DNA of 63,693 bases, filler included, from an uncultured Methanosarcinales archaeon (GTDB lineage: Archaea; Nanobdellota; Nanobdellia; Woesearchaeales; CALCXY01): the NCBI GenBank assembly GCA_964385185.1. It is 4 parts of 4 records of this genome, joined end to end, with 100 filler letters (N's around TTAATTAATTAA, not from the genome) between each part and the next. Parts side by side here need not be neighbours in the genome. Positions count along the whole stretch, not along the records: positions 12,607 to 23,069 come from CAYLOA010000004.1; 3 more parts are not named here. One strand, written 5' to 3'. Positions within the stretch are counted from its first letter, which is position 1, and each line of letters begins with the position of its first letter. Below are positions 1 to 54,993 of this stretch, piece after piece. Under the pieces are notes generated by a model, which worked only from the letters and a program-made list of their open reading frames with translations, did not search any database and was not told where the DNA came from. The translations under genes and the position numbers were made by a program.

Positions 1-2323
1 GTGAAAAAAATGAACCAGCCTGAATAGTATCCCATAAGAAAACCACTTGTTTTCCAAACAGCTTAACATTCGCAATAATACTAACTAACTTACAAATCTT
101 ACCTGCATAATCAAACACTTTCTGTAACATTCCAATGGTATCAAGAAGTGGACCACTTGCATCATCAATTGCTTCCTTAATCTCTTCTTTAAGCTTTACA
201 CTTACCTCACCTTGAGGAAAGTTACTAAATGGAATATCAACTTCAAATGTCTCCCGTTCAGGGAAAGCATTAACTGATGTTGAATCAATAGAAGCAATGA
301 TATCATATGAACAATTAACATTAAAAGATAAATCATCAGCAAAATCACTCTCAAATAAGTTAAAAGCTAACATAGTATCAAGAGAGGGAATAACTCCAGA
401 TTCATCTATATCCTCAATAAAAGGCAATCCTTCCCCTTCACAGCCCACAAAAGTAACATCTAAAGGAACAGCATCCACACCAACAGATTGCAGCTGCACT
501 GCACAAAACTCACGTTGACTAATAACTTCTGCAAACTGTCGATCAATAAAAGAAGGACTACAAGATACACGAGATTGAAAGAAATTAGGGTCAGGATCAT
601 CATTAATCTGAGATAAAAATATAGTTGCAGTCTCAGATACTGAATTTCCTGCAAAATCTTCAAATCGAACAACCAGCCTTCCATCTCTTGGACCACTGAC
701 CTCAATAGCAGGTGTCTCCCAACTACAAAAGAACTTATTTACAGTCCCATTAGCAACAGCCCTGCAATTTGCAATAGGTTCACTAACATCCCCAAAGATA
801 TCGGTAAACAACAAACCAGAAACAATGGTATCATCAGTAACATTTCCAAAGACAAACAATCTTTCCCCTTTAACAATCAATCCTTGAGGGATATCCAATT
901 GCGAAGGAATTTTCTTAACAAATAAATTCTCAATAATAGGGGGTTGTGTATCAGCAACGATATCAATACTTTTAACAGCTACAGCTGTATTCCCTAAATC
1001 ATCTTCAGTAGTCAAAGTAGTCCCAATAGTAACTCGTTGATTATGGGTCATAAACAAAGTTCGATTTGCCCACACACACCTTCCATCAACACAACTATCA
1101 GCTTTATCCGTAGCACTCAGCCCAACAGGACTTAAATCCAAAAACACATTGCCCTTATCAACACCAATAACATCATCAACTTGAGCAATAAAGCTCACCT
1201 TATTATCAACAATAAAAACTCCTCTAAACTCCCCTGTATCAGTAACCAATGAAGTAACAACAGGACCTACCCCATCTTTAGTAATAACACCTAAACTAAC
1301 ATCTTCAGAAAATAGATTTCCAGCTACATCTTCTCCTTTAACAGTAATAGTAGGAGATACTGTATCTTGAATAAGTGTAGTAAATTGCCAACGACAAGTA
1401 CTCAAATTACCTCCACGATCAACACACGAAGTAGCAGATATATCCCCTGGCTTACCAAGAGCACTTAATTCTGCTTTAACACTACTAAACACTAAATTAT
1501 TATCAGAAATATTCACTTCAAGCTCAACAGGAATAAAATTAGGACCTACAAACAACAACTTCTGACCAAGTGAATCCTTAAGCACACTTCCTTCAACATC
1601 AGGTATGGTTTGGTCTACAGAGAACGTTGCACAAGTAAGACTAGTACTTTCCAACCCTAATCGATCTCGAACTTTACCACAAACGGTAAACGTTCCATCA
1701 CCAGAAGGACTGCTAAAATCTTGAGTAATAGTTTGCACACATAGTGTCTCATCTAAATCAATCACCCCTAAACTCTCCCCTCCAAAATCGTTGTTAAACA
1801 ACTCAACTTCTCCCAACCCTACACAATTAGAGGGATTATCTTGAACCGTAAAAGAGAGTTCCACAATTGTTGAAGAAGTAAGCGAAGCATCAACACCAAA
1901 AGCTGTAAATTGTGGAGCTTGATCATCAACTTGGATTTGAGCAGAAGCTTTCTCTCCCGTAAATTGCCCATTATCATCAAACAATTGCACTTCATAGGTA
2001 AACACACCACTCGGAAGAACTGTCTGTTGACTACTGGTACACCGACTAGGATCTCCTGTATCTGCACAGGTGTCAAAGACTAAGAACGGTCCAGCACCGT
2101 TAACAAACGTCCTAATTTGATTCGGTGAAATCTGAGTATCTCCATCAACAGAAGCATCTACATCTAATTGTGTAACATCCACCCGTCCTCTAAATCCAGA
2201 AATATCATCTCCTCCTCGAATATTATCTAACGTGATTGAACTTGCAAATACGGAAGCCGAATACATAGGAAGAGTTATGACTAGCATAATCATCCATATT
2301 GCAACAAATTTCGTCTGCCTCAT
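1..2323 (-). CDS. Large secreted/surface protein (at least 774 aa, runs off the window start) with repeated beta-rich Ig-like segments; absent from the ORF track
   Basis: ATG at 2323 overlaps the upstream TGA (ATGA). My translation stays open to base 2: MRQTKFVAIWMIMLVITLPMYSASVFASSITLD...; signal peptide, recurrent DxxGN and D-x-x-x-P motifs, paired Cys. Confidence 0.85.
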   Translation of the reverse strand, partial: MRQTKFVAIWMIMLVITLPMYSASVFASSITLDNIRGGDDISGFRGRVDVTQLDVDASVDGDTQISPNQIRTFVNGAGPFLVFDTCADTGDPSRCTSSQQTVLPSGVFTYEVQLFDDNGQFTGEKASAQIQVDDQAPQFTAFGVDASLTSSTIVELSFTVQDNPSNCVGLGEVELFNNDFGGESLGVIDLDETLCVQTITQDFSSPSGDGTFTVCGKVRDRLGLESTSLTCATFSVDQTIPDVEGSVLKDSLGQKLLFVGPNFIPVELEVNISDNNLVFSSVKAELSALGKPGDISATSCVDRGGNLSTCRWQFTTLIQDTVSPTITVKGEDVAGNLFSEDVSLGVITKDGVGPVVTSLVTDTGEFRGVFIVDNKVSFIAQVDDVIGVDKGNVFLDLSPVGLSATDKADSCVDGRCVWANRTLFMTHNQRVTIGTTLTTEDDLGNTAVAVKSIDIVADTQPPIIENLFVKKIPSQLDIPQGLIVKGERLFVFGNVTDDTIVSGLLFTDIFGDVSEPIANCRAVANGTVNKFFCSWETPAIEVSGPRDGRLVVRFEDFAGNSVSETATIFLSQINDDPDPNFFQSRVSCSPSFIDRQFAEVISQREFCAVQLQSVGVDAVPLDVTFVGCEGEGLPFIEDIDESGVIPSLDTMLAFNLFESDFADDLSFNVNCSYDIIASIDSTSVNAFPERETFEVDIPFSNFPQGEVSVKLKEEIKEAIDDASGPLLDTIGMLQKVFDYAGKICKLVSIIANVKLFGKQVVFLWDTIQAGSFFS

Positions 2324-12506: not shown

Positions 12507-12606
12507 NNNNNNNNNNNNNNNNNNNNNNNNNNNNNNNNNNNNNNNNNNNNTTAATTAATTAANNNNNNNNNNNNNNNNNNNNNNNNNNNNNNNNNNNNNN
12601 NNNNNN
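12507..12606. other. Artificial contig joint (N-padded TTAATTAATTAA six-frame stop spacer)
   Basis: Ns flanking TTAATTAATTAA at 12551-12562. Confidence 0.97.
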
Positions 12607-12816
12607 TTATCTCGCTATCACTCGAAACTTTAAGATACTCATTTCATTCGTATCGTAAAGTTATCTCACTTCGTTCGAAGCTNNNNNNNNNNNNNNNNNN
12701 NNNNNNNNNNNNNNNNNNNNNNNNNNNNNNNNNNNNNNNNNNNNNNNNNNNNNNNNNNNNNNNNNNNNNNNNNNNNNNNNNNTTAAGATACTCGTTTCAC
12801 TCGTACCTTAAAGCTT
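12607..12816. repeat. Tandem hairpin array at the 3' end of the ABC permease gene, interrupted by a 100-N gap (12683-12782)
   Basis: AACTTTAAGATAC-tcatttcattc-GTATCGTAAAGTT and ...TTAAGATAC-tcgtttcactc-GTACCTTAAAGCT, linked by TTATCTCRCTWTC-like units. Confidence 0.65.
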
Positions 12817-14017
12817 CCACAGGCTGCTGCCTAGCTGCTTGTATTGCAGGTAATACTCCTGAGACTGTTCCTATTGTAAATGAAAATGCTAAAACTGCTA
12901 AAATTAAATACCACGGGAAAAAGACATCTATGAATTCAAACAATAATACATTCTTAATAATCCAAACCACTCCTTTTGAGAATCCAATTCCTATTAGAAT
13001 GCCCATTATTCCTCCTGCAGCTCCTAACAACCCTGACTCTAAAATAAATAATTGGGTAATATCTCTGTTTCTTGCTCCAATTGCTTTCATTATTCCAATT
13101 TCTTTGGTTCTTTCTATGACTGAAGTGTACATAGTATTCATTATTCCAATTCCTCCTACTAATAATGAAATTCCTGCAATGGCTATGAGTACCAATTGGA
13201 TGACTCCCAAGATTTGATTGAGTGATCTTAGGATTTCATCAAATGTTTGGATTGCAAAGTCTTCTTTTCCTTCTTCAAGATCTCTAAAGTTTCTGAGTCT
13301 TCTTTTTATTTTTTCTGCAACTATGACGGGATCTACTCCTTTTTCCATTTTGAGAATGATAGCATCCACCCTGTTTGGAATTTCAAATAACTCTCTTGCA
13401 GCTTCTAGTGGCATACTTATCGCTTTATCATCTTCAGCAGAACCTATGTAATCCAAGACACCGACTATTTTTACATTTTGTCCGTTAATTTTATACGTGT
13501 TTCTTACCTGAGCATTTTTCTTGAATAAATTTCTTTCTACATGATAATTTCCTACAACCGCTTTGAATTTATCCCCCTTCTTGATCATTCTACCTTCAGC
13601 AATTTCTACATCACCTAGCAATTCTTCCCATACTTTTAGTCCAACCCCTGTATCTGTTCCAATTACATTGAAGAATCTTGTTTCATCGTTGAATTCTATT
13701 TTTGCAGGTACGATGATATATACAGTGGATTCTGCTACTTCTTTTATTTTGGCTACAAAATCCCAATCATCTTCGGTTAAGGAGATTCCCAGCGTTTGTG
13801 ATCCGGGAGGTGCAAATGCAGTTTTCGGAGTGATAATTAATTTGTCTGTACCTAGTAGTTCAAATTGTTCATTAATTTCTTTTTCAAAACCTTGTCCTAG
13901 TGATATTAAGGAGACGATTGCTGCAATTCCTACAAAAATTCCTAACAGGGTTAATGATGTTCGTAGCTTTCGCTGTTGTAATGTTCTCAGTGAGTATTGT
14001 AATAGATCTTTTATCAT
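12797..14017 (-). CDS. ABC transporter permease, MacB/FtsX family
   Basis: LRTSLTLLGIFVGIAA, GGIGIMNTMYTSVIERTKEIGIMKAIGA, PVEALRYE. Confidence 0.95.
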   Translation of the reverse strand: MIKDLLQYSLRTLQQRKLRTSLTLLGIFVGIAAIVSLISLGQGFEKEINEQFELLGTDKLIITPKTAFAPPGSQTLGISLTEDDWDFVAKIKEVAESTVYIIVPAKIEFNDETRFFNVIGTDTGVGLKVWEELLGDVEIAEGRMIKKGDKFKAVVGNYHVERNLFKKNAQVRNTYKINGQNVKIVGVLDYIGSAEDDKAISMPLEAARELFEIPNRVDAIILKMEKGVDPVIVAEKIKRRLRNFRDLEEGKEDFAIQTFDEILRSLNQILGVIQLVLIAIAGISLLVGGIGIMNTMYTSVIERTKEIGIMKAIGARNRDITQLFILESGLLGAAGGIMGILIGIGFSKGVVWIIKNVLLFEFIDVFFPWYLILAVLAFSFTIGTVSGVLPAIQAARQQPVEALRYE

Positions 14018-15234
14018 TTTCTTAGCGCATCCACAGGATGTAATTTAGCTGCTTGGAGTGCAGGAACTACTCCTGATGCGGTACCTACACCAAATGAAAA
14101 TATGAGTGCTCCTAAAATTAGATACCAAGGGAAGTTGGCTCTGAGTAAATCTGTACCTAGGAGACCTTTTCCAATAATTTCAACTGATTTAGAGAGGGCG
14201 ATGCCCATAATGATGCCTACAATCCCTCCAGACATTCCGAGGAATCCAGATTCAATCATAAATAATGTTAGGATATCTTTATTTTTTGCTCCAATGGCTT
14301 TCATGATTCCTATTTCTCGAGTTCTTTCTAAGACAGAGGTGAACATGGTGTTCATAATTCCTATCCCCCCTACAAACAGAGAAATCATAGCTATTCCGAT
14401 AATGAGTGCTTGCATGATGAGTAAGATAGAACCAAATGTTGAAGCAGTTTGTTCAGGAGTTTCTACGGTGAAGTCTTCTTCTCCTAGATCTAATCTTCTA
14501 TCTCTTCTCATATTTTTTTCAATGTTTTGTGCAACGATTCTATTATCAAATCCTTTGGCCACTTGGACATTGATAAAATCAACTTCATCTTGTTCATTAA
14601 CAAGATCTCGTAAGGTATCTTCCATAATGAGAAATGCATCATTTCCAAATGGTGCTGAAATTCTTTCCATGATGCCTATTACTTCAAATTTTTTCCCTTC
14701 AAGAAGTATTTTTTCCCTTACTTTTACTGGACGATCAAATGGATTATTATCTTTTAGGAAATTATTACCTAATACTACTTTGAATTTATCTCCTGTTTTG
14801 AGATGTCTTCCTTGATTAACTTCCACATTTAATGCTCTCAGAACAAAGTCTCTCCCTTCTTTACTTTCTGGAAGAGAGATGGCAAAAGTTTGAACGGTAC
14901 GATCATTGAGTTCTCCTGTTACTCCTCGGAGTAATCTTCCCACGGCAAATTCAACACCTCTCGAGCGTTCCACAATTTTTATATCATCTTCCAGCAAGGG
15001 TACTGCTGCAAGGCTACCCGGAGGGCCAAAACCAGAACTGGCTGCTTGGATTACAAGAATGTCTGAACCTAAATCTGAAAAGGTAGCTGTTAAGGCTTCC
15101 TCAAGTCCTTGACCTAGAGAAACGAGAGAAACTACAGCAGCTATACCAATAAAAATTCCCAACATGGTAAGCCAAGATCTTAATTTTCTGCTTTTTAAGG
15201 ATCTTAGTGTAATTAAGACATAGTCTTTAATCAT
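14014..15234 (-). CDS. ABC transporter permease, MacB/FtsX family (paralog)
   Basis: LRSWLTMLGIFIGIAA, GGIGIMNTMFTSVLERTREIGIMKAIGA. Confidence 0.95.
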   Translation of the reverse strand: MIKDYVLITLRSLKSRKLRSWLTMLGIFIGIAAVVSLVSLGQGLEEALTATFSDLGSDILVIQAASSGFGPPGSLAAVPLLEDDIKIVERSRGVEFAVGRLLRGVTGELNDRTVQTFAISLPESKEGRDFVLRALNVEVNQGRHLKTGDKFKVVLGNNFLKDNNPFDRPVKVREKILLEGKKFEVIGIMERISAPFGNDAFLIMEDTLRDLVNEQDEVDFINVQVAKGFDNRIVAQNIEKNMRRDRRLDLGEEDFTVETPEQTASTFGSILLIMQALIIGIAMISLFVGGIGIMNTMFTSVLERTREIGIMKAIGAKNKDILTLFMIESGFLGMSGGIVGIIMGIALSKSVEIIGKGLLGTDLLRANFPWYLILGALIFSFGVGTASGVVPALQAAKLHPVDALRK

Positions 15235-15236
15235 CT

Positions 15237-16622
15237 TTACTGCTTGGTTTTTCTCTTTTTCATTAACCAGTAGATTCCTGCACCAAATACATACCCACCG
15301 ATTACTAATATTCTCCAGAGAATTGTTTTATAGCGTGGTCCTGTCATTTTAAGGACATCAAACACCATAAAAAGCCAAGCTACTGTTAGAATTACTATAA
15401 ATGCTAAGCTGAATATTGATCCTACAAAAGAACCTCCTTGGATTAATCCTAGTTTTTTTGCTTGTCGAGAGCTGTACAAAGGAAGATCCAATTGGATACT
15501 TTTTGTAAATTCTTTGTTAAATGCATCTTTGTATGTGAGATCAAGATCTAGAACTGCTTGTTTTTTTGCTGAGACGTATATTTCATATTCTGCTGAATCA
15601 AAATCATCTGAATCTAGATTACCCAAGTATACAGAGGGTGAAGAGACTACCGTATAATCTTTACTTGGGTTTAAATTTGCAGTAAGGTATTGAATTTCAG
15701 AAGAACCTACATTGGATACGGAGATGATTACATTTCCTTTTCCACCTCTTGTGTAGACTTCCGTTTCATCTATATTTACTAAAAAATCAGGTGCATCGTT
15801 TACAATAATTCCAATATCATTATTTTTTGAATAGTTTCTTCCTACTTCATCGAAATAAGAAATTTCTAATGGAATTTTATGGACTTTTGAAGCAGCATTT
15901 GCTTCCACATTGAGATTGAATATTACTTTCGTTGATTCTTTTCCACTTAATTGATGAATCATTTTTTCATCTGAAGTTCCTACGGGAGCAAAAGGGACAT
16001 CATCTAGATTGAGTTTAAATCGTAGATCTTTGAGAACGGAATCTGCTGTGTTTACTATTGTCATCTCTACATTTGTCGTTGTTCCTGGCGATAAGACCTT
16101 TGAATCTGTGGAAATTTCTTCTATTGCTAATATTGCGTCATTTGTTTGCACTCTGAGAAAAAAAGGTTCTAGTTTTGTCCAGGCTAATCCCCCATTAGGT
16201 GAGAATTGAAAGCTAATTTTATTATTTCCTTCTACTGCTGATTCATCAACTTTTAATCTGTAAAAAATGATGTATGCATCTTCTCCTACCTGTCTAGCAC
16301 CTACTCTTCCTAATCTTACTCTTTCTGTTCCTTCTGCTAATGTGAAGGGGTATTTAGGTATAAATTCAAATAATACATTTGGAGCGTCAGAAGTTCCAAT
16401 ATTTTCTACCTTTAGTCTGACTTCCACGATACCACCTGGTTCAGCAGGGTCGGGACGTTGATTGATGAAGTTGTATGAGACATCATTAATGTTTGATTCA
16501 GATTTATTTCTGACTATAATTACTGATAAGTCTGTGTTGGATTTACTTAATGCAGCTTCAGCTATTCCTGCAAATGCTATACAGATTGTGAGTATAAGTA
16601 TTACTTGGAGTATTTTTTTCAT
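15237..16622 (-). CDS. COG1361-like (S-layer domain/CARDB-type) membrane-anchored protein of the ABC module
   Basis: Signal peptide, PDPAEPGG-VEVRLKVENIG beta domains, YLGNLDSDD, two C-terminal TM helices. Confidence 0.8.
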   Translation of the reverse strand: MKKILQVILILTICIAFAGIAEAALSKSNTDLSVIIVRNKSESNINDVSYNFINQRPDPAEPGGIVEVRLKVENIGTSDAPNVLFEFIPKYPFTLAEGTERVRLGRVGARQVGEDAYIIFYRLKVDESAVEGNNKISFQFSPNGGLAWTKLEPFFLRVQTNDAILAIEEISTDSKVLSPGTTTNVEMTIVNTADSVLKDLRFKLNLDDVPFAPVGTSDEKMIHQLSGKESTKVIFNLNVEANAASKVHKIPLEISYFDEVGRNYSKNNDIGIIVNDAPDFLVNIDETEVYTRGGKGNVIISVSNVGSSEIQYLTANLNPSKDYTVVSSPSVYLGNLDSDDFDSAEYEIYVSAKKQAVLDLDLTYKDAFNKEFTKSIQLDLPLYSSRQAKKLGLIQGGSFVGSIFSLAFIVILTVAWLFMVFDVLKMTGPRYKTILWRILVIGGYVFGAGIYWLMKKRKTKQ

Positions 16623-17305
16623 TTTGCTTGTCTGCTCATTAATTTCCCATCTTTTAAATGTACCGTTCTATCAGCTGCTTTTGCGACATAATCATCGTGT
16701 GTTACCATTACTATGGTTTTTCCTTCCTTTCTATGTAGATCTTTTAGGAATTTCATCACATTGAGTCCTGTTTTGGAATCTAGGTTTCCTGTGGGTTCAT
16801 CTGCTAAGATTACCTCCGGGTTAATTGCTAATGCTCTTGCAATTGCTACTCTTTGTTGTTGACCTCCTGAAAGTTCAGTAGGTTTATGGTCCATTCTATC
16901 ACCTAATTCTACCATCGTTAAGAGTTCTTCTGCTCTTGTAATTCTTTTATGTTCTACTATGTTTTGAAACATTAAAGGGAGCATGACATTTTGTTTAGCT
17001 GTCAAGGTAGGGATTAAATTGAATTGTTGAAAGATAAAACCTATCATTTTTCCTCTAATTTGTGCTAGAGAAGATTCTGATAGTTTTGAGATATCTTTTC
17101 CGTTGAGGGTGATAGTTCCTTTGGTAGGAAGATCAAGACATCCTACCATATTTACTGCTGTGGATTTCCCTGATCCTGAGGGGCCCATAATGGAGACAAA
17201 TTCTCCTTTTTGTATCTCTAGATTCAATCCTTGGAGGGCAGTTACTTTAACTTCTCCCAAATCATAGATTTTCCAGACATCTTTGAGTTGAATTATAGCT
17301 GTCAT
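16619..17305 (-). CDS. ABC transporter ATP-binding protein (LolD/MacB-like)
   Basis: GPSGSGKST, FQQFNL, LSGGQQQRVAIARAL, ADEPTGNLD, VTHD. Confidence 0.97.
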   Translation of the reverse strand: MTAIIQLKDVWKIYDLGEVKVTALQGLNLEIQKGEFVSIMGPSGSGKSTAVNMVGCLDLPTKGTITLNGKDISKLSESSLAQIRGKMIGFIFQQFNLIPTLTAKQNVMLPLMFQNIVEHKRITRAEELLTMVELGDRMDHKPTELSGGQQQRVAIARALAINPEVILADEPTGNLDSKTGLNVMKFLKDLHRKEGKTIVMVTHDDYVAKAADRTVHLKDGKLMSRQAK

Positions 17306-17320
17306 CTTGTTTCCTTTATT

Positions 17321-17351
17321 TCTTGTATCTCTTGTATCTCTTGTATCTCTT
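17321..17351. repeat. 9-bp tandem repeat (TCTTGTATC x about 3.4) in the ABC operon leader
   Basis: TCTTGTATC at 17321, 17330 and 17339, plus TCTT. Confidence 0.85.
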
Positions 17352-17445
17352 AATCAATATATACCTTTTGGTTGTTATGCTGATGATATTTAGTTCATTT
17401 GATTACATTTATATATTGGAATATGCAGATAGTACACTATAAGGG

Positions 17446-19776
17446 GTGAACATGACTAAAAATAAGATAGATGATGTAGTGCAACTGATTATTCCACCAT
17501 TATTGGTGGCTCTTTTGACTTTGTCTATCTTTGAATTGTTTACCGACCTTTCTGCTTATGCTATATGGATTGATGTCTTTGATGTCTTTGTGATCATTAT
17601 TTTTGCAATTGATCTTTATCATAGATGGTTTGAGGTTCGGAGTATTGGTCCTTTTCTTAAGAAGTATTGGCCTGATATTATAGCAACTATTCCTTTTAAT
17701 TTAATATTTTTGGGGTTGGATAAATTGGTATTCACTCGTGCATTGCGAGGGGTACGGATTATTGGTCGGGCTAGTAAGTTGACTCGATTTGCAAGATATG
17801 GTAGACTATTGAGATTGATTAGGGTTGGAGCGAGATTACCAAGGTTTTTACGGGTGCGGAAGCATATTAAGAAGGCAAAAATACGGAAAGAGCAACCTCA
17901 CGAACGTGAGATGAAAGGTACTTTGAGTTTTAAGGTTATTTTGCTGATTACTATCAATTCTATCATGGGGACAGGAATTTATTTCTTAGTTGCCGCTGGA
18001 GCAAAGCATGCTGGTCCTGCTTCACTAGTTTCTTGGGCAATACTCTCTGTTATTGCTGTCTATATTGCGATGTGTTTTTCAGAGCTTACTGCTATGTTTC
18101 CTAAGGCTGGGGGAGTGTATGAGTTTGCCAAGCAGGCTTATGGAAGGTTTTGGTCGTTTGTGATAGGTTGGGCTACGTCGATAGCTGGAAGTGTGACGAT
18201 AGCTATGTTGTTATTAGGTGCTCTACAATACGTTATCCCTATACAGTATAGTAGCTGGTATGTTCCGATAGCTATCGGTTTGATTTTGATATTTAATGCA
18301 GTAGCTTATCATGGAATGCAGACATCGACTGTTATGTTAGTAAGTTTTGCTATGGTCACCTTATTTACTGTTCTTGCGATTATTATTCCTAGTTTCTTTA
18401 ATATTTCAATTGAAAATTTTAAGCCTTTTTTTGTTTTTCCAGCGATGAATATTTTACTGAGTATTTTCTTTATTGCTGAGACTTTTTTTGGATGGGAGAG
18501 TGCTGTTTTTTTATCAGCAGAGACGAAAAATCCTACGAAAGTTATGCCAAAGGCTCTTATTTATGGAACTTTGGTTATTGTATTACTTTCCTTTACTTTG
18601 GCATTTACTTCACTAGGAGTTATCCCTTGGGAGCAATTTGGAGAGTCTGCAGCACCTTTAAGAGATATTGGGGGTGCCTTGTTTGGAGCACCTGGATTGC
18701 TTATTTTTGGAGTTTTAGTGTTTATTTCTATTATTGGTGCGGTAGCGTGTTGGATTGTGACAGCACCACGGCTTTTGATGAGTATAGCTGAGGATAAGTT
18801 GTTTTTTGTACAATTTGCTAAGATTCATCCTAAATACAAAAGTCCCTATGTGAGTATTATTTTTCAAGCGCTTGTCGTGAGTATTTTGGTCTATATCGGA
18901 GCAGGTCAGTATGAGACTTTATTACATATGCTTATCCCATTGATTTTATTTATCTATTCTGCTGTGTTGTTGAGTGTTGTGATACTACGATTTAAACAGC
19001 CTAATACCAAGAGACCCTACAAGATTTGGTTTGGAAAGGTAGGTCCCATTATTACTATTGGTTTTTTGATTTTTCTCTTGGTAATGTTTATTCGAGAGAC
19101 ACATGCAGCATGGGATATCTTGAGAATATCAGGATTGCTTGTTGTTTTAGGGATACCGGCTTATTTATTTATTGAAATCTTTTATGATGATAAGTATGTT
19201 ACTTTGCGACGGAATATTATGGCATTTTTCTCTCATTATACTCATCATGTGGCTCTGAAGCATTCCATTTTTAGAAAGATTGTAGGTTATGTGGGGCCTT
19301 TTAAGAAAAATAGTACTATTGTTGATTTTAATTGTGGGACGGGATCTTTCGTTAAGTTGTTGATCAAGGATAAGGTACCGTTTAAGCAGGTCTATGCTGT
19401 TGACAAAGCTAAAGAGGAGATTAAGACGTTTTTAGCCCATATCCCTCAGAAGTTTAAGAAGAAAATTCACGCAAAATACAGGCCTAGTTGGAGTATGCCT
19501 AAACATATTAAGAAGGCAGATGTTTTTGTAAGTTTTGATGCTCTAGGACATGTTTCCGATATTGAGAGTTTTTTGAAAGACGTTAGGAAGGTGCTTAAGA
19601 AAAATGGTAAGTTCTGTTTTCATATTAAGCATCATGTTCTGAATGTGACTCCTAATGCTGTGGTGTTGGATGATAAGAAGGCTATTGTTAAGTTGTTTGC
19701 TAAGCAGAAGTTAAAGGCAACGTATAAACGAGAAGGTGCTTTTACAACTCATATTTTTATTTACGGACGTAAATGA
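17446..19776 (+). CDS. Fusion protein: voltage-sensor-like domain + APC amino-acid permease + class I SAM-methyltransferase-like domain, 776 aa
   Basis: S2 IFAIDLYHR, S3 WPDIIATIP, S4 RALRGVR..RFARYGRLLRLIR; APC NSIMGTG, ELTAMFPKAGG, FFGWE, RPYKI; C-terminal IVDFNCGTG, VLKKNG. Confidence 0.85.
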   Translation: MNMTKNKIDDVVQLIIPPLLVALLTLSIFELFTDLSAYAIWIDVFDVFVIIIFAIDLYHRWFEVRSIGPFLKKYWPDIIATIPFNLIFLGLDKLVFTRALRGVRIIGRASKLTRFARYGRLLRLIRVGARLPRFLRVRKHIKKAKIRKEQPHEREMKGTLSFKVILLITINSIMGTGIYFLVAAGAKHAGPASLVSWAILSVIAVYIAMCFSELTAMFPKAGGVYEFAKQAYGRFWSFVIGWATSIAGSVTIAMLLLGALQYVIPIQYSSWYVPIAIGLILIFNAVAYHGMQTSTVMLVSFAMVTLFTVLAIIIPSFFNISIENFKPFFVFPAMNILLSIFFIAETFFGWESAVFLSAETKNPTKVMPKALIYGTLVIVLLSFTLAFTSLGVIPWEQFGESAAPLRDIGGALFGAPGLLIFGVLVFISIIGAVACWIVTAPRLLMSIAEDKLFFVQFAKIHPKYKSPYVSIIFQALVVSILVYIGAGQYETLLHMLIPLILFIYSAVLLSVVILRFKQPNTKRPYKIWFGKVGPIITIGFLIFLLVMFIRETHAAWDILRISGLLVVLGIPAYLFIEIFYDDKYVTLRRNIMAFFSHYTHHVALKHSIFRKIVGYVGPFKKNSTIVDFNCGTGSFVKLLIKDKVPFKQVYAVDKAKEEIKTFLAHIPQKFKKKIHAKYRPSWSMPKHIKKADVFVSFDALGHVSDIESFLKDVRKVLKKNGKFCFHIKHHVLNVTPNAVVLDDKKAIVKLFAKQKLKATYKREGAFTTHIFIYGRK

Positions 19777-20118: not shown

Positions 20119-20712
20119 ATGTTTCAGTGCTTTATGGATGAAGAGCGTAGACGTTTAATCATGGGGATTATCCTTGTATTTTTTATGGTGTCTTCCGTAT
20201 TTGGAGTCTTTGTATTTGGGTTTAATGACGGGGCAAGTAGCACCTCTCAAAGATACAATGGACATAAGTTTACTATCTTTCAGAATCAATGGAAAGTTGA
20301 ATTGAACGGAGAGGATAAATTGTTTGATTACTATCCTGAAGATGTGGATTACATTCCCGTTGATTCAGCTGTTTCATCTGCATTTTCAAATGCTAAGATG
20401 GTGTATTTTACTAGTGATGTAGATAGTGCAATGAAGGGACCGATTGCTCAGAGTACCTATGATTTTAATAGAGCTTTAGTTGCTGAAAATATTCATGTTG
20501 TTACTGCTTTTACTGAAGAGAATGAATTTAATTTGCCTGTTGTTACGTGTGCTGAAGCAACACCGACTGTTCCTGTTGTTATGCTTGTAGCAGGAGATAC
20601 TACCAGTGTGTCTACTATTGGAAATTGTATTGTTTTAACAGGAGATAGTGATTATAGTTTTTCAAGATTATCTGAAAGAATACTATATGGATATTACGGA
20701 GTGATAGCATGA
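20119..20712 (+). CDS. Membrane-anchored hypothetical protein, paralog of the next gene
   Basis: N-terminal TM; VTCAEA...GNCIVLTG...ERILYGYYG. Confidence 0.8.
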   Translation: MFQCFMDEERRRLIMGIILVFFMVSSVFGVFVFGFNDGASSTSQRYNGHKFTIFQNQWKVELNGEDKLFDYYPEDVDYIPVDSAVSSAFSNAKMVYFTSDVDSAMKGPIAQSTYDFNRALVAENIHVVTAFTEENEFNLPVVTCAEATPTVPVVMLVAGDTTSVSTIGNCIVLTGDSDYSFSRLSERILYGYYGVIA

Positions 20713-21347
20713 GCGAAGAAAAGAGTACAGAAAAAACACCTATTAGTAAAGATAAGATTTTAATTTATACAGCTATAGGTATTGTTGTTTTAGTGTTAGT
20801 TTTTGTAGCAGCTATTGAGCTCTATGATCCTGAGCCTGAAGTACCTGTTGAGACTTTTCAAGGTTTTGTATTTTTCAAAAAAGCAGATTTTTGGCATTTT
20901 AATTGGCAAAGGGATGCTGAGACTACGTATACTGTAAGTTTACGATTTCATCCTCGAGAAGCTTTAGAAGTTGAGTTAGAAGGAGAAATTTTAGATACTT
21001 TTAACGCTTTTGTTGACAACAATAAAGAAGTGTATGTAACTTTTAATCCACAAGCGGATAACTTTACCTATACTGCTTTAGCAGCAGGTGAGCTTAGTTT
21101 GAGTGTAGCACGTGCATTAGATGTAACTCCTATTGCTGCTTGTACTGAGGATGATGGGACAGAAACTTGTGTGGGTCGTCCTATTGTAACTTGTGATGAT
21201 ACTGACAAAGCAGTTATTTTCTTAGATGATGTCGAAGATGAGACTAAGATTACACTAGAAGATAATTGTTTAATCATTTCTGGTAGAGGGATGGAGAAAT
21301 TACGAGCTGTTGATAGAGTATTGTATCATTGGTATCGTGTTTATTAG
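20709..21347 (+). CDS. Membrane-anchored hypothetical protein
   Basis: N-terminal TM; VTCDD...DNCLIISG...DRVLYHWY; ATGA-type overlap with the previous gene region. Confidence 0.8.
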   Translation: MSEEKSTEKTPISKDKILIYTAIGIVVLVLVFVAAIELYDPEPEVPVETFQGFVFFKKADFWHFNWQRDAETTYTVSLRFHPREALEVELEGEILDTFNAFVDNNKEVYVTFNPQADNFTYTALAAGELSLSVARALDVTPIAACTEDDGTETCVGRPIVTCDDTDKAVIFLDDVEDETKITLEDNCLIISGRGMEKLRAVDRVLYHWYRVY

Positions 21348-21351
21348 TCTT

Positions 21352-22317
21352 TTATCTAAAATAGACTATCTTTACAGTTATGAAGATGAGGTAGAGTCCT
21401 ATTAAGATATATCCTTCTTTTTTATCGTCTTGTCCAATTTTCATATTTCTTTTCAAGAGATAGAGGGCTATAATTGAGGCACAAAACCAGAAAGGGATGT
21501 CGAAGAATAATAAGTTCTTGTCGAAATTGAGTCCTATACTTCCTGCCATGATTGCTCCTAAGGGTAAGGAGAGCATGGGATCTGTTATGTTTGAACCTAA
21601 TAGTGTTCCAATGGAAAGATCTCCTGCTTTCTTTGTGATGGCTCTTATGGCTGTGGAGAGTTCTGGAAGAGCTGTTCCTACCCCTACAATCATGATTCCA
21701 ATAAACGATTGGGCTACACCCCATTGTGATGAGAGTGAGAGGGCTGATTCCACTACATATTTGGATGCTACTAATAATATGGTGAGGCCTATTCCAAATT
21801 TAAACAGTTCTTTGCCAATAGGGCTGTGATGTTTATGGAATGCAGCTGATTTTAGGAATTTTTCATTTTTTGCAACTTTGTATAGGTAGAGGATGTATAG
21901 AATTAAGAGTCCAATGGCTTCAACGATTGTTATTTTGAAATCGGTGTATCCTACAATGAACACTGCAATGATGGAGAAGAGGATCATTTTGCCATCTCTC
22001 CTTAAGGTGTCTTTCGTGGCATACATGGTTCCTAATAGTGCTGTGATGCCTAAGACTAAGGTTATTTGTGTGATGTCTGAACCTAGATTGGTTCCTATAG
22101 CAATTCCTGAAGCTTGGACCCCTTGAGATACTTTATATCCTGAGAATAAGTTGGTCATTATTTCTGGGATTGAAGTTCCGATTGAGATTATGGTTAATCC
22201 AATTAACGTTTGTGAAATTTTTAATTTATGAGCTATTTTTTTTGATGAGTTTACTATGATATCTGATCCATAGTAGAGACATCCTAAGCCGAGGATTAAT
22301 ATTATTAATTCAAACAT
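21352..22317 (-). CDS. Ca2+/Na+ antiporter (CaCA/YrbG family)
   Basis: Alpha repeats GTSIPE...GTNLGS and GTALPE...GTLLGSN. Confidence 0.92.
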   Translation of the reverse strand: MFELIILILGLGCLYYGSDIIVNSSKKIAHKLKISQTLIGLTIISIGTSIPEIMTNLFSGYKVSQGVQASGIAIGTNLGSDITQITLVLGITALLGTMYATKDTLRRDGKMILFSIIAVFIVGYTDFKITIVEAIGLLILYILYLYKVAKNEKFLKSAAFHKHHSPIGKELFKFGIGLTILLVASKYVVESALSLSSQWGVAQSFIGIMIVGVGTALPELSTAIRAITKKAGDLSIGTLLGSNITDPMLSLPLGAIMAGSIGLNFDKNLLFFDIPFWFCASIIALYLLKRNMKIGQDDKKEGYILIGLYLIFITVKIVYFR

Positions 22318-23069: not shown

Positions 23070-23169
23070 NNNNNNNNNNNNNNNNNNNNNNNNNNNNNNN
23101 NNNNNNNNNNNNNTTAATTAATTAANNNNNNNNNNNNNNNNNNNNNNNNNNNNNNNNNNNNNNNNNNNN
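23070..23169. other. Artificial contig joint
   Basis: N-padded TTAATTAATTAA at 23114-23125. Confidence 0.97.
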
Positions 23170-54893: not shown

Positions 54894-54993
54894 NNNNNNN
54901 NNNNNNNNNNNNNNNNNNNNNNNNNNNNNNNNNNNNNTTAATTAATTAANNNNNNNNNNNNNNNNNNNNNNNNNNNNNNNNNNNNNNNNNNNN
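54894..54993. other. Artificial contig joint
   Basis: N-padded TTAATTAATTAA at 54938-54949. Confidence 0.97.

Follow-up and report, generated by a model that had tools for sequence, protein, structure and literature searches.

A pore-less voltage-sensor domain joined to an APC-type permease and a methyltransferase-fold domain in a DPANN archaeon: a candidate voltage-gated amino-acid transporter

Introduction

Voltage sensors are familiar as components of ion channels. In the portion used here, a review of December 2024 names only SLC9C1, the voltage-sensing phosphatases, Hv1 and TMEM266 as non-channel cases (PMC13095418). SLC9C1, in which a long S4 controls a secondary transporter, was described in 2023 as the only known transporter regulated by a voltage-sensor domain (VSD), according to the sections of that work considered here (PMC10620092). 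In the open-access literature of PMC and bioRxiv, no description was found of a VSD–APC fusion, of a VSD–methyltransferase fusion or of stand-alone VSDs in DPANN archaea; the first-pass annotation of the present locus had likewise known of no VSD–APC fusion.

The locus lies in a window of 63,693 nucleotides (the whole stretch of DNA that was analysed, filler included), which joins four parts of an archaeal genome. It carries a gene that encodes a single protein with 16 transmembrane (TM) helices, in which a pore-less VSD is followed by a LeuT-fold carrier of the SLC7/APC type and a cytoplasmic methyltransferase-fold domain. This three-domain architecture had been proposed in the first-pass annotation and is borne out by Pfam matches, AF2 models and conservation across the family. 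The placement of the organism among the DPANN archaea also holds, with homologues from sources named Woesearchaeota or Nanoarchaeota and a genome of 1.3 Mb; the sequence occurs in marine and vent habitats. The topology fits as well: the cytoplasmic end of S4 lies on the side from which APC TM1 starts. Since TM1 must be preceded by an even number of helices, S4 has to cross the membrane.

Gene model and assembly

The gene is a single intact open reading frame of 776 residues when read from GTG, stop codon included in its coordinates and internal stops absent (Table 1). Translation probably starts at ATG 17452 and not at GTG 17446, because the Shine–Dalgarno-like GGGGTGA overlaps the GTG, because of the position of TTTATATA, which we take to be TATA-like from the archaeal consensus, and because P0002 (774 aa), the nearest homologue, begins two residues downstream of the window's GTG. 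Every residue listed in the first-pass annotation was found where it had been placed, including I52-F53-A-I-D56-L-Y-H-R60, W75-P-D77-I-I-A-T-I-P83, NSIMGTG (171-177), ELTAMFPKAGG (213-223), FFGWE (347-351), DFNCGTG (627-633) and the ATG at 17911, which encodes M156. Scans of the window for tRNA genes and Rfam families gave no match.

Table 1. Features of the locus, with positions along the window
Feature	Coordinates	Strand	Residues	Remarks
TATA-like box TTTATATA	17408..17415	+		possible archaeal promoter element; ~37 nt upstream of ATG 17452
SD-like GGGGTGA	17443..17449	+		overlaps GTG 17446
Whole ORF	17446..19776	+	776 from GTG / 774 from ATG 17452	
S1 helix	17464..17541	+	7-32	AF2 helix; outer acid E30, aligns to KvAP S1 Glu
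S2 helix	17551..17634	+	36-63	D46, outer acid; F53/D56, charge-transfer-centre aromatic/acid; R60, conserved Arg; D46, D56, R60 align to KvAP S2 D, D, R
S3 helix	17668..17733	+	75-96	D77 and P83 kink, align to KvAP S3 Glu and Pro
S4 region	17734..17862	+	97-139 (43 residues)	15 K/R, no D/E; mostly every third position basic
Basic linker HIKKAKIRKEQPHEREMKGTLS, S4 to APC TM1	17863..17928	+	140-161	holds M156 (ATG 17911-17913)
APC/SLC7-type permease	17929..19242	+	162-599	12 TM; NSIMGTG in TM1, FFGWE in TM6
Class-I methyltransferase-fold domain	19243..19773	+	600-776	cytoplasmic; alternating strands/helices
Altered motif I, VDFNCGTGSF	19321..19350	+	626-635	first Gly of GxGxG is Asn

The source genome is metagenome-assembled (1.3 Mb, 85 contigs), and the window holds runs of N at 12507-12782 and 23070-23169; the gene lies within an uninterrupted stretch of 10 kb. 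The first-pass annotation had named a stop, an indel or a chimeric join between the domains as a possible flaw. Contigs from four runs of other studies cover the whole stretch across the VSD/APC junction, and they span both domain junctions without indel, joint or stop: a contig of the run X5 (record 1) covers 17327-19241 with 0 differences to the window, and contigs of X6, X7 and X9 cross both junctions, likewise free of indels and joints. Of the 22 runs listed for this sequence, none is an RNA run.

The voltage-sensor domain

The Pfam match, the homology to KvAP, the predicted fold and the conserved charge-transfer residues together identify the N-terminal domain as a genuine VSD without a pore, as had been claimed. 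When the N-terminal 160 residues are scanned alone, Ion_trans (PF00520) matches with its profile positions 13-120 of 241, which correspond to S1-S4 only (E 3.2e-5). The score of 23.7 bits falls 1.3 bits short of the 25-bit gathering cut-off, in a six-TM model of which only half can be matched. Among the Pfam families that had been expected, AA_permease_2 and the methyltransferase families were recovered above their cut-offs, and Ion_trans at this score under its own. A profile built from the VSD and 66 stand-alone relatives retrieved KvAP (E 2.7e-6) and the isolated KvAP VSD (1.4e-5) from the PDB; in these alignments E30, D46, D56, R60, D77 and P83 fall on acidic, basic and proline positions of KvAP S1-S3, and the distal part of the arginine ladder on KvAP S4. 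The AF2 model of the domain (pLDDT 82.8, pTM 0.69) has helices at 3-32, 36-63, 75-106 (kinked at P83) and 112-134, and its top Foldseek matches are the KvAP VSD (prob 1.00, E 0.026) and HCN1/4. Confidence is low at residues 91-120 of the domain model and at 88-122 and 140-156 of the full-length model, where pLDDT stays below 50 for S4 and the linker.

The elements of a charge-transfer centre, named here after the parts used of PMC10620092 and PMC13095418, are all present: an aromatic and an acid in S2, an acid in S3, and outer acids in S1 and S2. Across 121 family members the S1 acid E30 is conserved as Glu in 111 and replaced by Asp in 2, and at the S3 acid D77 109 members have Asp and 10 have Glu. 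D46 and F53 are kept in 117 members each and D56 and R60 in 118 each, the remainder being gaps except for a single Tyr in place of F53; the proline P83 is shared by 120. With like-charged substitutions counted, E30, D46, F53, D56, R60 and D77 are retained in 113-119 of the 121.

The S4 ladder consists of R98/101/104, R114/117/120/123/126 and R130/133/136, to which R108, K111, R138 and K139 are added; 73% of its basic residues are followed three positions later by a further one, and this charge pattern is far from chance. In the family S4 measures 28-64 residues with a median of 14 K+R (range 9-19), and the basic positions are R or K in nearly all of the 121 members that possess them. The distal half (about 111-136) is common to stand-alone VSDs and to KvAP S4. 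The proximal Arg stretch is polymorphic in length, residues 108-114 being missing in 21-30 of the 121 members, and stand-alone relatives have an acidic 'QxxxHE' linker in its place, so that some of the 15 charges may play no part in gating.

A six-TM voltage-gated cation channel would require a pore, and none is predicted. Ion_trans_2 does not match, Ion_trans positions 121-241 remain unmatched, a G[YF]G motif occurs nowhere in the protein, and the gap between S4 and APC TM1 is just 22 residues long, in line with the earlier claim that S5-P-S6 and the selectivity filter are absent.

The permease core

The frame continues, as had been read, into a full APC permease. AA_permease_2 matches residues 160-547 over profile positions 1-406 of 427 (E 1.2e-43, 150.1 bits against a cut-off of 27), and AF2 places twelve TM helices at 162-579. 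The closest solved structures are BasC (6f2g, E 2.9e-28), GkApcT (5oqt, 4e-21) and LAT1 (about 1e-18). The best NCBIfam match, TIGR00909 (E 9e-51), scores 173 bits where the cut-off is 556.8, and BcaP 131 where it is 690; with no NCBIfam subfamily or equivalog above its cut-off, no substrate can be assigned. The core has a mean identity of 75% within the family. It is the only AA_permease_2 match above the cut-off in the 1.3-Mb genome, which also encodes the A and B subunits of an ATP synthase and a K+-channel pore.

Stand-alone relatives and the age of the fusion

The full three-domain architecture occurs in at least 120 protein clusters, and the best 120 show it at full length with 58-89% identity. 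Within the phylum, 23 of the 401 sampled genomes carry the fusion, in six families. The closest relatives of the fused VSD are stand-alone S1-S4 proteins of 140-250 aa, whose genes occur in 167 of the 401 genomes (about 40%). The abundance of these unannotated proteins suggests that voltage sensors lacking a pore are more frequent among prokaryotes than the portions used of PMC13095418 and PMC10620092 indicate. In six genomes a stand-alone VSD gene lies less than 500 bp from a gene for an APC–methyltransferase protein or for the fusion, and in two of them (G137 and G260) a Kv-type channel belongs to the same cluster. Further fusions were sought by comparing the genome's stand-alone VSD with longer proteins; none of 844 candidates reached E <= 1e-5, a result that carries little weight. 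The names of the members of the HPP-VSD, stand-alone VSD and VSD-APC representative clusters were uninformative.

In a protein atlas, the best score (0.81) went to short Ion_trans-like clusters of CPR bacteria and lies below the level at which a match counts as more than a mere lead.

The first-pass annotation had taken the in-frame ATG at 17911 as a hint of a recent fusion or of a second start. Neither reading survives the comparison with homologues. Of 121 homologues, 80 have Met at position 156, and the other 41 have Leu (38) or Phe (3). VSD-less APC–methyltransferase proteins of the same archaeal order, which are 30-48% identical over residues about 150-776 and share both C-terminal domains, have neither VSD nor linker and begin at the equivalent of E153; M156 aligns with their L4 and not with their M1. 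The junction linker is among the best-conserved parts of the protein, with a mean identity of 71% to the window protein and with K142, I146, R147, Q150, P151, H152, E153 and K157 conserved in at least 90%. In the VSD tree all fused VSDs (47/47) form one clade (SH-aLRT 96), which groups with 8 stand-alone sisters. As judged from these comparisons, with the fusion in six families, the fusion is real and old, and a dual-start gene is not supported. The recent capture of a neighbouring stand-alone VSD was considered and rejected, since the neighbours form a separate clade of 12 rows (support 100) apart from the fused one.

Proposed voltage gating

The architecture points, with somewhat better than an even chance, to an amino-acid transporter gated by membrane voltage, in which S4 would act via the linker on TM1a, on the methyltransferase-like domain or on both. 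TM1a is the helix that gates LeuT-fold carriers on the cytoplasmic side. The membrane potential would move the long, highly charged S4, the motion would be transmitted through the short linker of 22 residues to TM1a and/or the cytoplasmic domain, and transport would be switched on or off accordingly. By analogy, the HCN/KAT1-like length of S4 hints at activation by hyperpolarisation, i.e., at transport only in an energised cell.

Voltage gating is favoured by the S1-S4 match to Ion_trans, the KvAP profile homology, the VSD fold, the retained charge-transfer residues, the conserved linker, the genuine and old fusion, the standing of the carrier as the only AA_permease_2 match above the cut-off in a genome with ATP-synthase subunits and a K+-channel pore, the stand-alone VSD genes that adjoin in six genomes, and the precedent of SLC9C1, as far as the part used of PMC10620092 describes it. 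Against it stand the Pfam score below the cut-off, the low AF2 confidence at S4 and the linker, the length-polymorphic proximal Arg stretch and the lack of any counterpart to the elaborate cytoplasmic coupling helices of SLC9C1; moreover, the adjoining stand-alone VSDs belong to another subclade than the fused ones.

Some of these points would also suit a VSD that is a structural or assembly module, concerned with insertion, dimerisation or localisation, whose charges serve folding and whose partner transports independently of voltage. Such a role would explain the missing SLC9C1-like coupling elements, the lack of a confident VSD–APC interface in AF2 and the variation of S4 length in the family, and the VSD-less form, which is far more widespread, evidently works without the domain. 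We nevertheless consider it unlikely: the charge-transfer acids and aromatic, together with 9-19 basic residues in S4, have been kept in a VSD that is only about 60% identical, a mere helix bundle needs no uncompensated buried run of arginines, and the linker to TM1 is strongly conserved.

The methyltransferase-fold domain

Class I SAM-dependent methyltransferases carry a motif I of the form (D/E)xGxGxG, the glycine-rich SAM loop, and the acidic residue that ends their beta2 contacts the ribose. The C-terminal domain belongs to this fold: Pfam Methyltransf_23/31/11/12/25 match at about 607-726 (E 4e-10 to 3e-7, all above their cut-offs), the structure of PH0226 (1ve3) matches with E 9e-4, and AF2 predicts seven strands (624-628, 648-653, 674-678, 691-697, 717-730, 757-763 and 767-775). 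The first-pass annotation had recognised this fold with its altered motif I, DFNCGTG, and the alteration extends to the whole family: of the 121 members, 82 have Asn and 37 have Asp at position 629, none has Gly there, and GxGxG is found in no member.

The further step to a SAM-sensing module is doubtful. In its favour, the window copy is among the more canonical ones, retaining D627, G631, G633 and D653, and SAM binding by this copy is possible; against it, the first glycine (G1) is missing in 121 of 121 members. The motif-I acid is present in 62, the second glycine (G2) in 42 and the beta2 acid in 46 of the 121 (N in 67), and the domain is the least conserved of the protein, with a mean identity of 43% against 75% for the APC core. 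Because of the lost G1, the infrequent beta2 acid and this low conservation, SAM binding is, on the pattern of motif residues, not a conserved property of the VSD-bearing clade. In the VSD-less paralogues the SAM-binding glycines are intact, with the motif-I acid, G1 and G3 each present in 120 of 120 proteins and the beta2 acid in 101; their gene sometimes stands in tandem with the three-domain gene (G286 and G120). The transporter carried its methyltransferase-fold domain before the VSD was added. Furthermore, the motif comparison suggests that degeneration of the SAM loop followed the gain of the VSD, and that voltage took the place, in part, of a ligand-type input.

That the C-terminal domain is an active SAM methyltransferase or a SAM/SAH sensor, and as such the real regulator or a substrate modifier with the VSD secondary, is quite unlikely in view of the residues lost across the VSD-bearing family and of the weak constraint on this domain, even though the Pfam matches, the intact D627, G631, G633 and D653 of the window copy and the well-preserved motifs of the VSD-less family speak for it.

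Remaining alternatives

The VSD might itself conduct ions, as an Hv1-like proton or omega-type pathway that feeds or dissipates the coupling ion or as an autonomous, tethered channel. This appears very unlikely. The unbroken S4 ladder of large basic residues and the conserved F53 plug are features that seal the gating pore in channel VSDs, and Hv channels are said not to have been found among bacteria or archaea (both according to the portion used of PMC13095418); these points weigh more than the kinship with small stand-alone S1-S4 proteins and the precedent of Hv1, given in the same portion of that review as the only characterised channel-forming VSD-only protein (PMC13095418). No Hv1-type signature was noticed in the domain.

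An assembly chimera, a frameshifted gene pair or a mis-called ORF, which the metagenomic origin and the N runs might have suggested, is effectively refuted by the position of the gene inside an unbroken 10-kb stretch, by the agreeing contigs of four other runs and by the same single frame in at least 120 independent clusters and 23 genomes.

Significance

If transport is voltage-gated, the protein would be a second, independent VSD-regulated transporter, archaeal, built on another carrier fold and connected to its sensor in a far simpler way. A small prokaryotic protein would then make the electromechanical coupling of a sensor to a rocking-bundle transporter directly accessible to experiment. 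Since this is the only confident APC permease in a 1.3-Mb genome, the uptake or exchange of amino acids by these small archaea may be linked to the state of the membrane potential. The SAM motifs, intact in VSD-less and degraded in VSD-bearing proteins, offer a natural experiment in the exchange of regulatory domains.

Voltage gating of the carrier could also be part of a wider, so far undescribed archaeal system, in which S4 would pull TM1a directly, stand-alone VSDs would act in trans on adjoining VSD-less carriers, and voltage would have replaced SAM in the fused lineage; this combined proposal is tentative and, as a whole, rather doubtful. If true, it would include the first LeuT-fold carrier, and the first prokaryotic transporter of any kind, to be controlled by a VSD.

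Comparison with known systems

The VSDs of KvAP, HCN, KAT1 and AKT1 provide the best matches by sequence (KvAP) and by fold (KvAP, HCN and KAT1). They share with the archaeal domain the acids of S1, S2 and S3, the position of the aromatic plug in S2 and the proline of S3, and HCN also a long basic S4. In contrast, the archaeal protein has no S4-S5 linker or S5-P-S6, and its S4 exceeds theirs in length and charge (15 K/R in 43 residues). In Ci-VSP, which is eukaryotic, the effector is a soluble PTEN-like phosphatase, whereas in the archaeal protein it is an integral membrane carrier. Hv1 and TMEM266 are VSD-only proteins, like the archaeal stand-alone S1-S4 proteins that form the sister group of the fused VSDs, yet both are eukaryotic. 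BasC, GkApcT and the SLC7 transporters (LAT/CAT) are clear homologues of the central domain, with the TM1 G-x-G and TM6 motifs in common, and none of the matched chains is described with a VSD or a methyltransferase-like domain.

The closest likeness is to SLC9C1. Like SLC9C1 as described in the part used of PMC10620092, the archaeal protein has a secondary transporter covalently joined to a pore-less VSD with an unusually long S4 and to a cytoplasmic regulatory domain of a nucleotide-binding type. The transporter parts are not homologous, and a Pfam scan of the window protein gave no Na_H_Exchanger or cNMP-binding match. SLC9C1 is a metazoan, sperm-specific Na+/H+ exchanger of the elevator-type CPA/NHE class, with a C-terminal VSD, a CNBD and a clamp around S4 formed by nine intracellular helices, whereas the archaeal protein, from a DPANN host, combines a LeuT-fold APC carrier with an N-terminal VSD, a linker of 22 residues into TM1 and a methyltransferase-like domain. 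Although no member of the SLC9C1 type, it may, by analogy, work like SLC9C1.

The fused frame and its surroundings

The fused protein is encoded by a single open frame of 776 codons, and a check of the sequence found in place every residue and motif that the first-pass annotation had listed for it. ATG 17452 is probably the true start, since the GTG shares its bases with an SD-like GGGGTGA, there is a TATA-like box upstream and the closest homologue starts two residues later. The permease and methyltransferase parts originally proposed are borne out by Pfam. A scan of the whole protein finds AA_permease_2 and five class-I methyltransferase families and leaves the N-terminus unmatched; when scanned alone, aa 1–160 match Ion_trans (E 3.2e-5; 23.7 bits, cut-off 25) at profile positions 13–120 of 241, the S1–S4 half only. 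Neither an Ion_trans_2 match nor a G[YF]G motif was found in the whole fused protein, and only 22 residues separate the end of S4 from TM1 of the permease. Judged by these features, the protein is without a pore.

Features of the fused gene, its neighbourhood and the contigs that bridge its junctions
Feature	Position	Strand	Remark
Fused frame	17446-19776	+	776 codons
TATA-like box	17408-17415		upstream of fused ORF
AA_permease_2	aa 160-547		Pfam E 1.2e-43
Five class-I methyltransferase families	aa ~607-726		Pfam E 4e-10 to 3e-7
ABC ATPase	16619-17305	-	divergent operon
461-aa membrane-anchored protein	15237-16622	-	divergent operon; weak CARDB-like match
MacB/FtsX permease	14014-15234	-	divergent operon
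Two overlapping ORFs (197, 212 aa)	20119-21347	+	N-terminal hydrophobic segment each; no Pfam match
Na+/Ca2+-exchanger-family gene	21352-22317		downstream of fused gene
Stand-alone S1-S4 protein, 190 aa	G000:C4:41677-42228; L002 1468-2040	+	Ion_trans E 5.7e-6, positions 6-113 only
VSD-permease junction	X5 record 1 (17327-19241, 0 differences), X6 record 6, X7 record 14, X9 record 19		bridged
Permease-methyltransferase junction	X6 record 8, X7 record 17, X9 record 20		bridged

The gene stands alone. A MacB/FtsX-type ABC transporter operon (14014–17305, −) lies upstream and divergent, and downstream an 89-codon minus-strand ORF abuts the stop codon. The genome (1.30 Mb, 85 contigs, completeness score 100%) encodes ATP-synthase A and B subunits and one K+-channel pore. 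Its only AA_permease_2 match above the cut-off is the fused protein, the second reaching 19.4 bits where 27 are required. The window contains N runs at 12507–12782, 23070–23169 and 54894–54993; 23170–54893 is contig C14 and the fused gene lies on C4, so the window is concatenated.

Reality and age of the fusion

The fusion of voltage-sensor domain (VSD), permease and methyltransferase-fold domain is real. Near-identical copies of the stretch occur in 20 runs from 17 studies of marine, seawater and hydrothermal-vent metagenomes. Contigs from four runs not flagged as a possible source span the VSD–permease junction, and contigs from three of these runs the permease–methyltransferase junction, with zero indels or joints; an assembly artefact is hardly credible. 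The same architecture recurs at full length in the best 120 clusters of a search of 5.8 billion proteins (668–858 aa, 58–89% identity, 86–100% query coverage) and in 23 of the 401 genomes sampled from the phylum: 16 in family f11, two each in f38 and f40, one each in f41 and f57, and the genome of the window itself in f1; one of these frames, in G033, is interrupted by a contig end. Those of the 120 clusters that have a name are labelled 'amino acid permease' and assigned to Woesearchaeota or Nanoarchaeota, and none of the 120 carries a precomputed Ion_trans label.

The suggestion of a recent fusion, or of a second start at ATG 17911, does not hold: in the alignment of 121 full-length fused homologues, 80 have M at position 156, 38 have L and three have F, and the fused clade spans six families. 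Conservation in the surrounding linker reaches at least 90% at K142, I146, R147, Q150, P151, H152, E153 and K157. In a quick IQ-TREE analysis covering 166 columns and 120 rows (47 fused, 65 stand-alone and six neighbour stand-alone VSDs, with two Kv-channel VSDs as root), one clade holds 47/47 fused VSDs (SH-aLRT 96), and its sister group consists of eight stand-alone VSDs (support 98). The fused rows were every third row of the alignment, its first six rows and four locus proteins; the others were omitted for size.

The N-terminal voltage-sensor domain

When the VSD was searched against the PDB as a single sequence, the 19 matches were weak, and all were voltage-gated channels (hERG, HCN1/4, KvAP) bar one (ECT2). 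A profile of the window VSD with 66 stand-alone relatives matched KvAP (E 2.7e-6), the isolated KvAP VSD (1.4e-5) and Shaker (5e-4); six sequences, KvAP and Shaker among them, were the sole matches at E ≤ 0.01. This profile places E30 on the S1 Glu of KvAP, D46, D56 and R60 on the S2 Asp, Asp and Arg, D77 and P83 on the S3 Glu and Pro, and the distal Arg ladder on S4. These positions, and F53, are conserved among the 121 fused homologues (E30, E in 111 and D in 2; D46, 117; F53, 117; D56, 118; R60, 118; D77, D in 109 and E in 10; P83, 120), the remaining cells being gaps nearly throughout. The S4 region (aa 97–139) contains 15 K/R and zero D/E; its basic positions are R or K in almost all homologues that have them, and the family median is 14 K/R (range 9–19) within 28–64 residues. 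APC carriers start in the cytoplasm, so that an even number of helices is needed before TM1 and, on the established topologies of APC carriers and VSDs, S4 would have to span the membrane. Sequence, profile and conservation evidence thus agree in showing a preserved voltage-sensor scaffold.

Relatives of the voltage-sensor domain

When aa 1–160 were compared exhaustively with 1.84 billion representatives, 227 matches were obtained at E ≤ 0.001, and 46 of the 150 matches listed were scanned for domains. About 30 are short proteins (143–247 aa) with at most the S1–S4 part of Ion_trans. In nine others (258–373 aa) the VSD follows an unassigned N-terminal stretch of ~130 aa; in P0220, P0248, P0260 and similar proteins (258–292 aa) the VSD lies at ~130–250 and the preceding ~130 aa have no Pfam match. 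One is a true channel, two are permease fusions (P0123 and the fragment P0122) and four are fusions to an HPP transporter (TM_HPP E 1e-8 to 2e-15). The last (P0164, P0173, P0233, P0268; 305–313 aa) have an N-terminal HPP transmembrane domain (PF04982) and a C-terminal VSD akin to that of the fused protein; by their domain matches, they are a second case of a transporter-like module joined to a pore-less voltage sensor. In an atlas feature space, the nearest clusters consist of 110–133-aa proteins from CPR bacteria (Saccharimonadota, Minisyncoccota) named 'Ion transport protein domain'. At a score of 0.81 this is no more than a lead; it hints at short VSD-like proteins in ultra-small bacteria as well.

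Within the phylum, 167 of 401 genomes have a VSD-profile match, mostly in stand-alone ORFs of ~165–290 aa. The tallies of 181/401 and 167/401 take in five unpublished genomes (G332, G243, G359, G242, G395), and the specific claims rest on none of these. The window's genome has one stand-alone VSD, 27 kb upstream on the fused gene's contig and outside the window, with the family's 'QxLLHEG' S3–S4 linker and a RFGRFSRFIRPLARLPRFLK S4. In six genomes (G137, G260, G063, G120, G371, G397) a stand-alone VSD gene lies <500 bp from a fused or VSD-less carrier gene; these cases are not independent, because four of the six belong to family f11, and in the ~30 other genomes listed with both genes they are far apart or on separate contigs. 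The neighbour VSDs of the first four form their own subclade (support 100), separate from the fused VSDs. Two of the clusters, those of G137 and G260, combine a stand-alone VSD and a VSD–permease fusion with a bona fide 6-TM channel of Kv type (Ion_trans and Ion_trans_2) (L016, G137:C75, 3–3919; L017, G260:C29, 596–4759); the three G137 genes share a strand and are separated by 24 and 218 bp.

Two-domain carriers and the methyltransferase-like domain

Most matches to the fused protein in the 401-genome search are without a VSD: they start at query residue ~114–160, in frames mostly of 626–720 aa, at 30–48% identity. In a search seeded with the VSD-less protein of G063, 7998 proteins were scored and 1002 of them reached E ≤ 1e-50; the 120 with the best scores measure 571–657 aa. 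The VSD and linker were added exactly at the ancestral start, because the VSD-less N-terminus MAELKKVLSF aligns with E153–F162 (M156 corresponding to its L4), and the two-domain form is the older one. Three loci of this family, widespread in the same archaeal order, encode ~626-aa proteins (L018, 1278–3167; L019, 695–2575; L020, 1220–3106), and JGI labels some members 'amino acid transporter/phospholipid N-methyltransferase' or '/UbiE'. The family keeps SAM-loop G1 and G3 and mostly the beta2 Asp; its members are carriers with an apparently intact SAM-binding domain.

VSD-less and VSD-bearing proteins differ strongly in the methyltransferase-like domain: the acidic residue of motif I is found in 120/120 against 62/121, G1 in 120/120 against 0/121 (N 82, D 37), G2 in 29/120 against 42/121 and G3 in 120/120 against 114/121, with the beta2 acidic residue in 101/120 against 46/121. 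Within the fused protein, conservation is moreover lowest in the C-terminal domain (43% mean identity to the window protein; carrier 75%, linker 71%, S4 65%, S1–S3 60%). SAM binding thus appears to be no conserved property of the VSD-bearing clade. The window's own copy may still bind SAM, because D627, G631, G633 and D653 are kept. In at least one lineage the domain seems dispensable, because P0123, a 587-aa VSD–permease on a 28-kb contig (53% identical over the VSD), lacks it.

Proposed mechanism

The analysis shows a preserved VSD scaffold joined, covalently and in conserved form, to TM1 of an amino-acid carrier of the LeuT fold, whose nearest relatives among solved structures are BasC, GkApcT and the SLC7 LATs. 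TM1a is the cytoplasmic-gate helix of LeuT-fold carriers. S4 displacement could act through the 22-residue linker on TM1a, on the cytoplasmic methyltransferase-like domain or on both, and transport would be gated as a result. Activation by hyperpolarisation would fit both the S4, long as in HCN and KAT1, and the precedent of SLC9C1. That the SAM loop degraded once the VSD had been gained suggests a change of regulatory input. Such voltage-gated transport is the reading towards which we lean, if by a modest degree. A purely structural role for the VSD is unlikely. Regulation dominated by the methyltransferase-like domain or by SAM appears rather improbable. Ion conduction by the VSD itself is slightly less probable still.

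Comparison with known systems

Public sequences of the fused protein are annotated as amino-acid permeases only, and no description of its architecture was found in the open-access literature searched. Yeo et al. (2023) present SLC9C1 as the only known VSD-regulated transporter (PMC10620092), and the abstracts of PMC10620091 and 10.1101/2023.10.04.560940 (2023) say so in other words. In the portions seen of a December 2024 review, the non-channel VSD cases named are SLC9C1, voltage-sensing phosphatases, Hv1 and TMEM266, and Hv channels are stated to be absent from bacteria or archaea (PMC13095418); the words 'transporter', 'SLC9C1' and 'archaea' are absent from the main text of a 2025 review (PMC13661669). 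The S4 of SLC9C1 is ~60 Å long, and its hyperpolarisation-driven downward movement relieves inhibition (PMC10620092). As read here, the fused protein would resemble SLC9C1 and the voltage-sensing phosphatases, with a VSD that acts on an effector other than a pore. It belongs to neither group. NHE module, CNBD and phosphatase are all lacking, and its VSD is N-terminal.
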